In this document: one piece after another, positions 24,801 to 42,800 of the stretch
Position numbering within the stretch: the stretch's first letter is position 1
How the letters are laid out: every line of letters starts with the position of its first letter
Assembly: GCF_057098645.1 (NCBI RefSeq)
Contig: NZ_CM169472.1
Reading direction: 5' to 3' (one strand)
Length of the DNA: 64,000 nt
Position numbers: made by a program

Positions 24801-27800
24801 CGGCTTACGCGATAACATGGATGAGTTGAAAAAAGCGGGCGTTGATGTGCTGGGTATCAGCACCGATAAACCCGAAAAACTCTCCCGTTTTGCGGAAAAA
24901 GAGCTGCTTAACTTTACGCTCCTGTCTGATGAGGACCACCTGGTGTGCGAGCAATTCGGCGTCTGGGGGGAAAAGTCCTTCATGGGCAAAACCTACGATG
25001 GTATTCATCGCATCAGCTTCCTGATTGACGCTGATGGCAAAATCGAACATGTCTTTGACGATTTCAAAACCAGCAATCACCACGACGTTGTGCTGAACTG
25101 GCTGAAAGAACACGCCTGATTACTTTGCTCCATTCCGTGCTGGCTGCGCTTGCGGCCAGCACACCTCACTTCTCGTGATCAAGATCACATTCTCACTTTC
25201 CCCTGCGACACGGGTGTCGAATCCATTTTTTGCTGAACGTTAATGACCATCATTTTTGTACCGTTCAGAATCCAGTTAATTCATAACTCATTGAATATAT
25301 TAAATTAATCAGACTGGCATCCTTTATGCAATATGAAATGCAATGTTTCATATCATTTTCAAGGAGCCGACATGAACCGCTTTGTGGTGGCCGAACCACT
25401 GTGGTGTACAGGATGTAATACCTGTCTCGCTGCCTGTTCGGACGTGCATAAAACGCAAGGTTTACAGCAACACCCGCGCCTGGCCCTGGCGAAGACGTCA
25501 ACACTCACTGCCCCTGTCGTGTGTCATCACTGTGAGGAAGCCCCTTGCCTGCAGGTCTGCCCGGTCAATGCCATCTCCCAGAGGGATGATGCGATCCAAC
25601 TCAACGAAAGCCTCTGTATTGGCTGCAAGCTTTGCGCCGTGGTCTGCCCATTTGGCGCAATCAGCGCTTCAGGAAGCCGTCCGGTGAATGCCCCTGCGCA
25701 ATATGTTTTTCAGGCTGAGGGCTCACTCAAAGACGGCGAAGAAAACGCGCCAACACAACATGCTTTGCTGCGCTGGGAACCGGGTGTCCAGACCGTCGCG
25801 GTGAAATGCGACCTGTGTGATTTCTTGCCACAAGGTCCGGCCTGCGTTCGCGCTTGCCCGAATCAGGCGTTACGGCTGATCACCGACGATAGCCTGCAAC
25901 GTCAGATGAAAGAAAAACAGCGCCTTGCCGCAAGCTGGTTTGCCAATGGCGGGGAGGATCCCCTTTCCCTCACTCAGGAGCAACGCTAATGGATGCCCTG
26001 CAATTATTAACCTGGTCGCTGATCCTCTATCTGTTTGCCAGTCTGGCTTCGCTGTTTTTACTCGGTCTGGACAGACTGGCTATTAAGCTTTCCGGCATCA
26101 CATCGCTGGTGGGCGGCGTGATTGGCATTATCAGCGGAATTACGCAATTACATGGAGGCGTAACTTTAGTCGCCCGTTTTGCCACCCCTTTTGACTTTGC
26201 CGATTTAACCCTGCGAATGGATAGCCTCTCGGCATTTATGGTGCTGGTTATCTCCTTGCTGGTGGTAGTTTGTTCGCTCTATTCATTGACTTATATGCGC
26301 GAATACGAGGGCAAAGGCGCGGCGGCGATGGGCTTCTTTATGAATATTTTCATCGCATCGATGGTTGCCCTGCTGGTGATGGACAACGCTTTTTGGTTCA
26401 TCGTGCTGTTTGAAATGATGTCGCTGTCTTCCTGGTTTCTGGTCATTGCCAGGCAGGATAAAACGTCGATCAACGCTGGCATGCTCTACTTTTTTATCGC
26501 CCACGCCGGATCGGTGCTGATTATGATCGCCTTCTTGCTGATGGGGCGCGAAAGCGGCAGCCTCGATTTTGCCAGTTTCCGCACGCTTTCACTTTCTCCG
26601 GGGCTGGCGTCGGCGGTGTTCCTGCTGGCCTTTTTCGGTTTTGGCGCGAAAGCCGGAATGATGCCGTTGCACAGCTGGTTGCCGCGCGCTCACCCTGCCG
26701 CACCATCGCACGCTTCGGCGTTGATGTCTGGCGTAATGGTCAAAATCGGTATTTTCGGCATCCTGAAAGTGGCGATGGATCTGCTGGCGCAAACGGGTTT
26801 GCCGCTGTGGTGGGGCATTCTGGTGATGGCGATCGGCACAATCTCCGCGCTCCTGGGCGTGCTATATGCGCTGGCGGAACAGGATATCAAACGGCTGCTG
26901 GCCTGGAGTACCGTCGAAAACGTCGGCATTATTTTGCTGGCAGTCGGTGTGGCGATGGTCGGTCTGTCACTGCACGACCCGCTGCTCACCGTGGTTGGAC
27001 TGCTCGGCGCACTGTTTCATCTGCTCAACCATGCGCTGTTCAAAGGGCTACTATTTCTCGGCGCGGGCGCGATTATTTCGCGTTTGCATACCCACGACAT
27101 GGAAAAAATGGGGGCACTGGCGAAACGGATGCCGTGGACAGCCGCAGCATGCCTGATTGGTTGCCTCGCGATATCAGCCATTCCTCCGCAGAATGGTTTT
27201 ATCAGCGAATGGTACACCTGGCAGTCGCTGTTCTCACTAAGTCGTGTGGAAGCCGTAGCGCTACAACTTGCGGGTCCTATTGCTATGGTGATGCTGGCAG
27301 TCACTGGTGGGCTGGCAGTAATGTGCTTCGTCAAAATGTACGGTATTACTTTCTGTGGTGCGCCGCGCAGTACACACGCTGAAGAGGCACAGGAAGTGCC
27401 AAATACGATGATCGTCGCCATGCTACTGCTCGCGGCACTCTGCGTATTAATTGCGCTTAGTGCCAGTTGGCTGGCACCGAAGATAATGCATATTGCCCAT
27501 GCGTTTACCGATACCCCTCCCGTCACTGTCGCCAGCGGAATAGCACTTGTACCCGGCACGTTTCATACACGGGTCACTCCCTCATTACTGTTGCTGTTAC
27601 TACTGGCGATGCCTTTGCTGCCTGGCCTTTACTGGCTGTGGTGTCGTTCGCGCCGCGCAGCGTTTCGTCGCACAGGAGATGCCTGGGCATGCGGCTACGG
27701 CTGGGAAAATGCGATGGCCCCGTCAGGCAATGGCGTGATGCAGCCGCTGCGTGTGGTCTTTTCTGCGCTATTTCGTCTACGACAACAGCTCGACCCTACG

Positions 27801-39800: not shown

Positions 39801-42800
39801 TGGCACTCCAGCTCATCACGCTGCGTAAGCAAAGAGACGAGGTGGCGCTTGAGGTAGAACAGCGAGTTCTTGCTCACCCTCTTTACCCGGTCCTGACCAG
39901 TATGCCCGGAGTCGGTGTCAGGACCGCAGCCAGACTCCTCACCGAGGTCGCCTGCCGCGCCTTCGCCTCTGCCGCACATCTCGCTGCTTATGCTGGCCTT
40001 GCGCCGGTAACTCGGCGATCCGGCTCGTCAATACGCGGTGAGCATCCCTCGCGACGGGGTAATAAAGCTCTCAAACGGGCGTTGTTCCTGTCGGCCTTCG
40101 CCGCGCTCAGGGATCCGCTCTCCAGGGCTTACTACACCCGCAAAATGAGTCAGGGAAAACGACACAATCAGGCGCTTATCGCCCTGGCGAGACGACGCTG
40201 CGACGTTCTGTTCGCCATGATGCGCGACGGGACTTTTTATACCCCGCAGGCGTCATAACATGCTTGACAACTTAATAGGGGCACCCCCCTTCTGGCAACT
40301 GGCGCACAGTAGCGCAGACAATTTTCCTGCACTGACGGTCAGCCATTTTATTACCGCCAATCTGCTCCCGGTGATGCTGGGTAATATTATCGGCGGTGCA
40401 GTGCTGGTGAGTATGTGTTATCGGGCTATTTATTTACGTCAGGAATCCTGAAAAATCAGCCCGGCGAAACAGTTCGTCGGGCTGAAGATTATTCTTGCGC
40501 TATTTGCCCATCGGGCCAGGCGTGGATCACGGCTTTGATCAGCGTCGCCAATGGAATGGCGAAGAATACGCCCCAGAATCCCCACAAACCACCGAAGATC
40601 ACCACCGATAAAATAATCACCAGCGGATGCAGGTTAACCGCTTCGGAGAACAACACCGGTACTAACAGATTGCCGTCAAGCGCCTGAATAATCAGATACA
40701 CCGCGAAACAGCTCCAGAATTCAGTGCCTGCACCAAACTGGAATAGCGCCACGCCAACCACCGGAATGGTCACCACAAATGCGCCAATGTACGGAATAAG
40801 TACCGAGAAGCCGACCAGCACCGCCAGCAGCAGCGAATAGTTCAGCCCAAAGAGCAAGAACCCCAGCCAGGTGGCGATCCCCACCACGATCATCTCCAGC
40901 ACTTTGCCGCGGATATAGTTGGTGATTTGTTGATTCATCTCCTTCCACACCTGTCCTGCCAGTCCACGGTTGCGCGGCAGCACCCGACGAACGGCGTTCA
41001 GCATCTGCTCTTTGTCTTTCAGCAGGAAGAAGACCATCAATGGCACCAGCACCAGATAGACGGCTATGGTCAGCAAACCGACCAGCGAGGCGAGGGAAAT
41101 TTTCACCACCGAATCGCCCATGGTCAGCATCCGACTGCGCATATTTTCGGCCATTGCATCAATAATGCCCGCATCCATTAACGCCGGATAGCGGCGCGGC
41201 AACGTGGCGGCAAAGTCAGAAAGCTTATTGAGCATCCCCGGCATATCGCGGATTAAGTAGATGCCCTGTTGCCAGGCGATAGGCAGTACCACGAACGCCA
41301 TCAGTAGCAATATACCGACGAAAACCACCAATACAATCGACGTCGCCCAGCGGCGGGAGCAGCCAATAGATTGCAGGCGCACGGTTGGCCATTCCAGCAA
41401 ATAGGCCAGCACAATAGCCACCAGCAACGGAGCAAGCAGGCCACTAAAGAAAAAGATAATGCCAAATCCGGCAACTAAAATAACCAGCAAGGCAATCGCT
41501 TCCGGGTCGCTAAAACGGCGGCGATACCATTGCATCAACATTTCGAGCATAAAGACCTTCCCTGAACCTCAAGAGCGGGATTGCGATCAGCAATTGTATC
41601 GAAATGTCACAAAAAAGACTTCGCTTTTTATGACGGATTCAGGAAACTGAAAAGTCATTTGAGTGGGCTAATCTTCGCCGTTACACTCAAAGGCGGCGCG
41701 GTGGGAACGATATTTCACAGTATCGGTCAAATGACTATCTTCAGAAATACAGGATAGAGGTTATGTTCAGGCAGTTGAAAAAAAACCTGGTTGCAACCCT
41801 CATTGCTGCTATGACCATTGGTCAGGTAGCCCCGGCATTTGCCGACAGCGCAGACACCTTGCCGGATATGGGAACCTCCGCAGGAAGCACGCTTTCCATT
41901 GGTCAGGAAATGCAGATGGGCGACTATTATGTCCGCCAGCTACGCGGCAGCGCGCCGTTAATTAATGACCCGCTGTTAACGCAATATATTAATTCGCTGG
42001 GGATGCGTCTGGTTTCGCATGCCAATTCGGTTAAGACACCGTTTCATTTTTTTCTGATCAACAACGACGAAATTAACGCCTTTGCTTTCTTTGGCGGCAA
42101 CGTGGTGCTGCACTCTGCCCTGTTCCGTTATTCCGATAACGAAAGTCAACTGGCTTCAGTTATGGCGCACGAAATCTCCCACGTCACCCAACGTCACCTG
42201 GCGCGAGCGATGGAAGATCAGCAGCGCAGCGCGCCGCTGACCTGGGTCGGCGCGTTAGGTTCTATTTTACTGGCGATGGCCAGTCCGCAGGCGGGGATGG
42301 CGGCGCTGACCGGTACACTGGCGGGAACGCGTCAGGGGATGATCAGTTTCACCCAGCAAAATGAACAGGAAGCGGACCGCATTGGTATTCAGGTGCTGCA
42401 ACGCTCGGGATTCGATCCGCAGGCGATGCCAACCTTCCTCGAAAAATTACTCGATCAGGCGCGTTACTCCTCGCGCCCGCCGGAAATTTTACTGACTCAC
42501 CCGTTGCCGGAAAGTCGTCTGGCAGATGCCCGCAACCGTGCTAATCAGATGCGCCCGATGGTGGTGCAGTCGTCGGAAGATTTCTATCTGGCGAAAGCGC
42601 GCACACTGGGGATGTATAATTCCGGACGTAACCAGCTCACCAGTGATTTGCTGGATGAATGGGCGAAAGGAAACGTTCGTCAGCAACGAGCAGCACAATA
42701 TGGTCGTGCTTTACAGGCGATGGAAGCCAATAAATACGACGAGGCGCGTAAAACGCTGCAACCGTTACTGGCGGCAGAACCTGGCAACGCATGGTATCTC

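Follow-up and report, generated by a model that had tools for sequence, protein, structure and literature searches.

The hyf–focB locus of Escherichia coli, as found in the stretch of DNA analysed here, poses a simple question: why should an operon for hydrogenase-4 (Hyd-4; formate hydrogenlyase-2, FHL-2) in which every structural gene and the activator gene are full length end in a broken focB? The stretch, called the window below, comprises 64 kb (64,000 nucleotides) of contig NZ_CM169472.1 in assembly GCF_057098645.1. It is around 99.97% identical to chromosomes of E. coli O145:H28, one of which, that of strain 95-3192, was compared over the whole window, with an IS3-family element found only in 95-3192 set aside. 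The answer that we consider probable is that the window holds a normal E. coli hyf–focB locus in which focB was knocked out by the insertion sequence (IS) ISEc20 in an ancestor of O145:H28, the loss being neutral or nearly so under weak selection. The element would have entered a run of C formed by Pro-Pro-Pro codons of focB, at a site apparently chosen by its own RNA guide. The truncated FocB would be non-functional, the insertion would have no polar effect and any Hyd-4/FHL-2 activity would draw its formate through FocA, so that the allele would reflect weak selection in the lineage rather than a specific adaptation.

Genes were mapped from the RefSeq records of K-12 MG1655 and of the genomes that match the window, and then compared gene by gene with K-12. 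Genome counts throughout refer to a collection of 5426 complete E. coli genomes.

Disruption of focB

The locus lies between bcp and yfgO, with hyfA-J, hyfR and focB in the same order as in K-12. When the window is aligned with the 849 nucleotides of K-12 focB, the break falls after nucleotide 679-682. The 5' fragment (38153..38834, +) keeps 227 native codons, and the frame that starts at 38153 then takes in 39 codons of the IS before its stop at 38953, for a total of 266 amino acids; a preliminary description of this DNA had already put the product at about 227 residues plus an IS-encoded tail. The final 55 codons are found 1.45 kb downstream in a detached 3' fragment (40284..40451, +), which holds the sixth transmembrane helix (TM6) and the Y-L-R motif, the focB sequence resuming at around 40284 and ending at 40451.

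What remains in the 5' fragment falls short of a formate-nitrite transporter (FNT). The Pfam Form_Nir_trans profile matches the truncated FocB over positions 7-208 of 240 only, and no single polypeptide from the disrupted gene contains the complete six-helix FNT domain. FocB aligns with FocA (3kcu) over residues 6-280. On this alignment the region of the central pore histidine (FocA H209) is kept in the 5' fragment, as GFEHCIANL against GFEHSIANM in FocA, and everything from the TM5-TM6 connection onward, TM6 and Y-L-R included, is encoded past the break. The Y-L-R motif itself (AIYLRQES) is encoded in the detached 3' fragment only, and is not part of the product that starts at 38153.

The importance of this C-terminal region is known from FocA, which imports no formate when either six or seven C-terminal residues are removed; the protein lacking seven, Y-L-R among them, is undetectable in the membrane and forms no pentamers (PMC5572259). 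The focB allele resembles these truncations in having lost Y-L-R, but its loss is far larger, since 55 residues have gone and 39 unrelated ones stand in their place, and it affects FocB, whose own transport is poorly characterised. Since both TM6 and Y-L-R are lost, the truncated FocB is taken to be non-functional and, by analogy with FocA, would almost certainly be a null allele.

An ATG at 40260, in the right end of the IS, lies in frame with the focB 3' fragment and opens a 63-codon reading frame (MLDNLIGAPPFWQLAHSS...) that spans TM6 (40260-40451). This frame is probably coincidental.

It is very improbable, in our view, that the 227 + 39 residues still make a working channel, possibly with a separate C-terminal peptide. 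The retained GFEHCIANL region speaks for such a channel, and the ATG at 40260 could in principle start the TM6 peptide. FNT protomers need six TM helices, however, the seven-residue truncation of FocA is enough to keep that protein out of membranes and pentamers, and nothing resembling a promoter was seen for the 3' peptide. Outside focB the insertion should have little consequence: other genes should escape any polar effect, since nothing follows focB in the operon and the convergent yfgO lies beyond a terminator-like hairpin (40456..40485, +).

The preliminary description called focB the dedicated formate channel of Hyd-4, which is stronger than the literature supports (PMC12396580). The role of FocB is far less defined than that of FocA, the main formate channel (PMC12396580 and the Trabulsiella guamensis preprint). 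Dependence of the complex on FocA, as that description also proposed, appears plausible because FocA has this main role and because there are active FHL-2 systems without focB in the cluster. These are the systems of Pectobacterium atrosepticum and T. guamensis, whose hyf clusters lack focB (PMC7654741; T. guamensis preprint), so that a hyf-type group 4A operon can work without it. The comparison has its limits: the Pectobacterium and Trabulsiella clusters carry a protease gene, hyfK, and that of Pectobacterium a formate dehydrogenase gene as well, whereas in E. coli the locus lacks a protease gene and the hyf region lacks one for formate dehydrogenase.

Distribution of the insertion

The focB::ISEc20 junction is present in 23 of the 5426 genomes, 22 from the O145 lineage and one from strain 300709. 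The 22 are recorded as O145, O145:H28 or O145:NM, or are unlabelled strains with identical junctions, and they originate from humans, cattle, creek water, lettuce and ice cream in the USA, Belgium and Japan. A 19-kb query around the focB/hyf region matched O145 genomes end to end. The identity of the junction in all 22 points to one ancestral insertion.

The same comparison bears on whether the insertion, or the intactness of hyfF in the window (see below), could be an artefact of assembly or sequencing. No complete genome among the 5426 is identical to the window, and a single G in a short G-run of hyfF separates it from 20 sister genomes. The IS junction, however, is identical in 22 genomes produced by different laboratories and the GGG of the window's hyfF is also that of K-12 and RM12761, and we consider an artefact very improbable.

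Strain 300709 (Mozambique, NZ_CP025903.1) resembles K-12 in background and also has ISEc20 at this point in focB. Across 2708 positions of hyfR-focB flank it departs from the window 30 times but from K-12 only once, its IS shows 6 differences from the window copy and encodes another transposase allele, and its left junction has four C as against six in the window. The flanking polymorphisms, the differences within the IS and the different left junction together argue that this insertion was independent.

The disruption is already known to the extent that RefSeq annotates a focB pseudogene and ISEc20 in public genomes; our literature search found no paper discussing it. All of its components are of familiar kinds: a hyf operon, an FNT pseudogene and a site-specific element of the IS110 family. 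The allele marks the O145:H28 lineage and in itself matters little, the locus being damaged or absent in many E. coli.

ISEc20 and its oligo-C target

Why focB was hit is a point that the preliminary description missed: ISEc20 is a C-run-specific element of the IS110 family. In the window it occupies 38835..40283 (+), a 1449-bp block conserved between copies, and is co-oriented with focB. Its transposase (39062..40258, +; 398 amino acids), named ISEc20 family by RefSeq, has the two domains of the IS110 family, DEDD_Tnp_IS110 (PF01548, E = 6.9e-49) and Transposase_20 (PF02371, E = 7.3e-22). There are no terminal inverted repeats, in that no inverted pair joins the two ends of the element. A literature search on ISEc20 found nothing relevant.

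Copies covering at least 80% of the element occur in 1119 genomes, at a median of one place per genome. Seven copies were gathered from six E. coli loci, namely focB (twice), a prophage tail-fibre region, a genomic island, the yaiO-frmR spacer, a penicillin-acylase pseudogene and an IS-rich region; five copies other than the window's differ from its 1449-bp block by 0-6 nucleotides. Relatives at 75-81% protein identity are found in Ralstonia, Burkholderia and Paraburkholderia. Every copy and relative collected sits in one orientation, with C(4-8) abutting GTTACT at the left and GGGGCA abutting CCCCCC at the right, in flanks that are otherwise unrelated. Insertion is thus specific for both sequence and orientation, as in the IS110 family.

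In the window these C-runs comprise six C on the left (38829..38834, +) and six on the right (40284..40289, +), each forming part of the oligo-C target. That they are target rather than cargo follows from the empty sites, which are themselves C-runs. In K-12, the empty yaiO-frmR site AG-C10-TTTCC takes the place of the C6-IS-C6 seen in strain AR202.2. At the insertion point, intact focB alleles read G-CCCC-(A/T)-CCCCCC-TTCTGG, which encodes Ala-Pro-Pro-Pro-Phe, and those nearest to the window have TTTTGCCCCACCCCCC. No C10 site, allowing at most one mismatch, remains in the 64-kb window. It follows that focB was hit because its run of Pro-Pro-Pro codons supplies one of the rare C-run targets of ISEc20. 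The locus offers a clean natural case of an IS110-family element striking coding sequence, where Pro-Pro-Pro codons mimic the oligo-C target, twice independently.

The strand of the C-run, and not the direction of the operon, fixes the orientation of the IS. This matters for a possible regulatory role, in which read-through from hyf would drive the bridge RNA (see below) and transposase of the IS under formate or anaerobic control, or in which the IS would alter expression of its neighbours. The IS is indeed co-oriented with the operon and stands directly after hyfR-focB, and the absence of any sigma70-like promoter in its integrated left end means that read-through may be its main source of transcript. 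We nonetheless hold such a role to be quite unlikely, given that the target strand already sets the orientation, that the downstream yfgO is convergent with a hairpin in between, and that the hyf operon is only weakly expressed in E. coli (PMC7654741). The promoter scan in question took in the integrated IS and its flanks and found no sigma70 promoter. In a circular form of the element, the TTGACA of the right end and the TACTTT of the left end could be read together as a putative junction promoter.

A putative bridge RNA

The IS110 family is known to choose its targets through a bridge RNA made from the non-coding left end, the 3' side of which pairs with the right half-site while a two-base handshake pairs with the donor (PMC11208160, PMC11208158). 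ISEc20 is like IS621 and the other IS110 bridge-RNA recombinases described there in its DEDD and Tnp domains and its lack of terminal inverted repeats. It further resembles IS621 in having a long non-coding left end with two stem-loop domains, the 5' and 3' sides of whose loops resemble target and donor half-sites, and in inserting with specificity for site and orientation. The targets themselves differ, being a repetitive extragenic palindromic (REP) sequence for IS621 and a homopolymeric C-run for ISEc20. Also unlike IS621, the two putative target guides of ISEc20 (GCCCCC and GGGGGG) are mutually complementary.

The putative bridge RNA would be encoded by the 227 nucleotides at 38835..39061 (+). 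Its two stem-loop domains are kept in Burkholderiales relatives with two compensatory pairs. Four motifs, of 7, 8, 9 and 6 nucleotides, occur in the order and polarity expected of a bridge RNA of the IS621 type. UGCCCCC (38894-38900) is identical to the left target. GGGGGGUG (38916-38923) is reverse-complementary to the right junction (CA+CCCCCC), as a right target guide with its handshake would be. UAAUAGGGG (38958-38966) is identical to the right end of the IS, and GUAACG (38997-39002) is the reverse complement of C+GTTAC at its left end. Taken singly, the motifs are weak, each being reached by 1-16% of dinucleotide shuffles; not one of 5000 shuffles attained the four together.

Next to iha in the O26 genome NZ_CP028126.1 lies a relative of ISEc20, 87.8% identical and truncated at its 3' end; there is just this one copy, the same in around 116 genomes. 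It has UUCCCCC in place of UGCCCCC, and its left flank has T rather than G before the C-run. As a single co-change of guide and target this is suggestive.

Several observations weigh against this account of target choice. An Rfam scan of 25000-41000 (E ≤ 1) gave no match, so that the left-end RNA belongs to no curated family. Relatives lend it no covariation support: those from Ralstonia and Burkholderia match ISEc20 in guides and in C-run flanks, and all relatives found share both guides and target. The donor left guide stops short of the presumed core. Nor was a single crossover register found that suits all three pairs of empty and occupied sites. The yaiO-frmR pair fits a duplicated CC core (C10 giving C6 + IS + C6), but CA, AC and CC all fail at the focB left junctions, and neither focB insertion retains, at its left junction, the A/T that interrupts the C-run of intact focB alleles (38829-38836 and 40280-40290 in the window). 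The number of C in the left flank ranges from 4 to 8 across ISEc20 copies, and homopolymer slippage or an assembly error may lie behind the misfit at focB. On balance we regard it as likely, but unproven, that the left end of ISEc20 specifies a bridge RNA that selects an oligo-C target.

Integrity of the hyf operon

The remainder of the operon bears out what the preliminary description said of it, namely that all ten structural genes and hyfR are full length, that neighbouring frames overlap by small and definite amounts, that a sigma54 promoter is present and that focB alone is disrupted. hyfA (25372..25989, +; 205 amino acids) overlaps hyfB (25989..28007, +; 672) by 1 nucleotide, and is followed by hyfC (28018..28965, +; 315), hyfD (28982..30421, +; 479), hyfE (30433..31083, +; 216) and hyfF (31088..32668, +; 526), all intact. 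The large subunit gene hyfG (32658..34373, +; 571) overlaps hyfF by 11 nucleotides. Beyond it, hyfH (34383..34928, +; 181) overlaps hyfI (34925..35683, +; 252) by 4 nucleotides and hyfI overlaps hyfJ (35676..36089, +; 137) by 8, these three also being intact. The gene for the sigma54 activator HyfR (36119..38131, +; 670), likewise intact, encodes GAF, Sigma54_activat and HTH_8 domains.

Comparison with K-12 revealed no internal stop in hyfA-J or hyfR, protein identities of 98-99.8%, and equal lengths for hyfA-F, hyfH-J and hyfR. The sole exception is hyfG, which encodes 571 amino acids in the window and 555 in K-12. No further hyf lesion, which the preliminary description had named as a finding that would overturn it, was detected within the window. 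The K-12 operon hyfABCDEFGHIJR-focB (Andrews 1997, cited in PMC7654741) therefore has the same order, overlaps, sigma54 element and lengths except for hyfG, and the two loci differ in that the focB of the window is split by ISEc20 and in that K-12 hyfG lacks 16 residues.

By gene content and order at the bcp/yfgO locus this is a hyf (Hyd-4/FHL-2) operon for a group 4A [NiFe]-hydrogenase. HyfG contains the cysteine motifs of the Ni-Fe site, RVCGICGFAHS and DPCYSCTDR, and aligns over its full length, the C-terminal tail (assembly peptide) included, with HycE of the solved FHL complex (7z0s_E, E = 4.6e-292). A sigma54 promoter and its cognate enhancer-binding protein, HyfR, are both found.

The promoter is the -24/-12 element TGGCATCCTTTATGCA upstream of hyfA (25315..25330, +), identical to that of K-12. 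A bare consensus scan was dropped as evidence for promoters: the 41 matches that it gave in the window do not exceed the 45.8 expected by chance. The element is accepted instead because of where it lies and because it is identical with the K-12 bcp-hyfA spacer, a sequence that ranks first or close to first among binding sites for RpoN holoenzyme in genomic systematic evolution of ligands by exponential enrichment (gSELEX; PMC8743547).

Decay and selection at the locus

The preliminary description had proposed comparing the integrity of hyf and focB across related strains. Such a comparison shows the loss of focB to be common, and also that hyf is not always intact in sister O145 genomes. In 20 of the 22, hyfF measures 1582 nucleotides. 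For RM13514 and 95-3192 this reflects a change from GGG to GGGG at hyfF nucleotide 225 (31310-31312 in the window), and RefSeq records a frameshift in the gene; in the 18 others the frameshift was inferred from the length of the span. The remaining two, RM12761 and RM13516, have intact hyfF, and the GGG state is found in the window, in K-12 and in RM12761. RM12761 (O145:H28, from the Belgian ice-cream outbreak) has a different lesion, an in-frame hyfH deletion of 105 bp between GCCCG repeats (34747-34851 in the window; residues 123-157), which RM13516 probably shares. As the extra G in hyfF and the hyfH deletion differ, two separate secondary lesions have arisen inside the focB::IS clade, of which the window, with GGG in hyfF and an intact hyfH, is an earlier state. 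A miscall of the hyfF G-run in the source of the window could also be imagined.

Looking beyond O145, a focB allele with a 1-nucleotide deletion (TTCTGG to TTCGG; 40290-40295 in the window), which lies just a few codons past the IS site and is annotated as frameshifted, was matched exactly in 624 of the 4297 focB-bearing genomes. The count was made with an 80-nucleotide query at ≥99% identity, here meaning exact, and is a lower bound (at least 624). This allele removes the same C-terminal part of FocB as the insertion and leaves hyf in place, but is a point deletion rather than an IS, and is far commoner, with at least 624 genomes against 23. Natural null alleles of focB are therefore common. 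The hyf-focB locus as a whole is missing from around 1130 of the 5426 genomes (around 21%).

The idea that the insertion reflects relaxed selection on a largely cryptic operon is supported by the hyfF and hyfH lesions of sister genomes, by the 624 or more frameshift alleles and by the fifth or so of genomes without the locus. 'Largely cryptic', however, overstates the case. The ratio of non-synonymous to synonymous substitution rates (dN/dS; Nei-Gojobori) between window and K-12 is 0.116 for hyfA-R (122 synonymous and 44 non-synonymous differences), or about 0.12, and 0.04 for focB reconstructed without the IS. Such low values indicate purifying selection on the locus over the history of the species, so that it is not simply junk. 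They count against a loss that was wholly without cost, as do the ion-flux phenotypes of K-12 focB mutants, in which proton and potassium flux is altered (PMC12396580) and from which loss may not be fully neutral. The fixation of the allele in all 22 sampled O145 genomes fits hitch-hiking or selected loss equally well.

Some observations speak for an adaptive loss of focB in O145:H28 with hyf retained, which might reduce re-import of formate or formic acid or alter ion homeostasis in a bovine or acidic niche. The fixed allele spans several countries, focB has been lost recurrently, through the second ISEc20 hit as well as the frameshift allele of 624 genomes, and the changes in proton and potassium flux are measurable. 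Recurrence at the exact site is, however, explained by the target specificity of the IS, and the later loss of hyfF or hyfH in sister genomes runs contrary to a benefit from keeping hyf. We consider adaptive loss unlikely, and prefer the reading of a neutral or nearly neutral knock-out. Loss at hyf-focB is lineage-dependent, and selection there is weak.

A deletion in K-12 hyfG

The most interesting lead from the locus is the difference in hyfG. A 48-bp segment (ARDYSPVGPLIRGSGF; 33813..33860, +) present in the window has been lost from K-12, BL21 and roughly half of the genomes that carry hyf. The K-12 deletion is in frame, lies between 10-bp direct repeats (GCCCGTGATT) and removes 16 residues, taking HyfG from 571 to 555 amino acids. 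The full segment is found in 2179 of the 4294 genomes that have this part of hyfG; the rest (around 2115), among them K-12, BL21 and O111:H8 strains, have the deletion. The 571-residue HyfG is the ancestral form and the K-12 deletion is derived.

In HycE of the solved FHL complex the counterpart of ARDYSPVGPLIRGSGF is ARDFSNVGPMVRASGH, and in the large subunit of the Pyrococcus membrane-bound hydrogenase (MBH) it is AIEMGAVGPTARGSGI. From its alignment with both of these solved group-4 large subunits, the deletion is seen to remove a conserved VGPxxRxSG segment, which is located inside a stretch matching the 49-kDa/NuoD subunits of complex I.

K-12 is the laboratory reference for Hyd-4, yet it bears a 16-residue deletion in the catalytic subunit, which could bear on the elusive nature of Hyd-4 activity. 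That activity is disputed in K-12, where none was obtained even with promoter replacement and C-terminal swaps (PMC7654741). The accessible papers on failed activation of K-12 Hyd-4 make no mention of the hyfG deletion. No published description of it was found, although such a search is no proof that it is unreported. It is tempting to suppose that the window, with its ancestral HyfG and free of the hyfF and hyfH lesions of sister genomes, encodes a catalytically competent Hyd-4/FHL-2 served by FocA alone and that the hyfG deletion would account for the silence of Hyd-4 in K-12; we regard this combined proposal as doubtful.

Other features of the window

Two further observations concern other parts of the window. 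In strain 95-3192 a 1.3-kb IS3-family element lies in the aegA-narQ spacer (at around 9745), and the window is without it; the window therefore comes from an O145:H28 strain other than those with complete genomes in the collection. Finally, yfgI (55995-56521) is split between two frames just after its signal peptide, and RefSeq records the gene as frameshifted in 95-3192.

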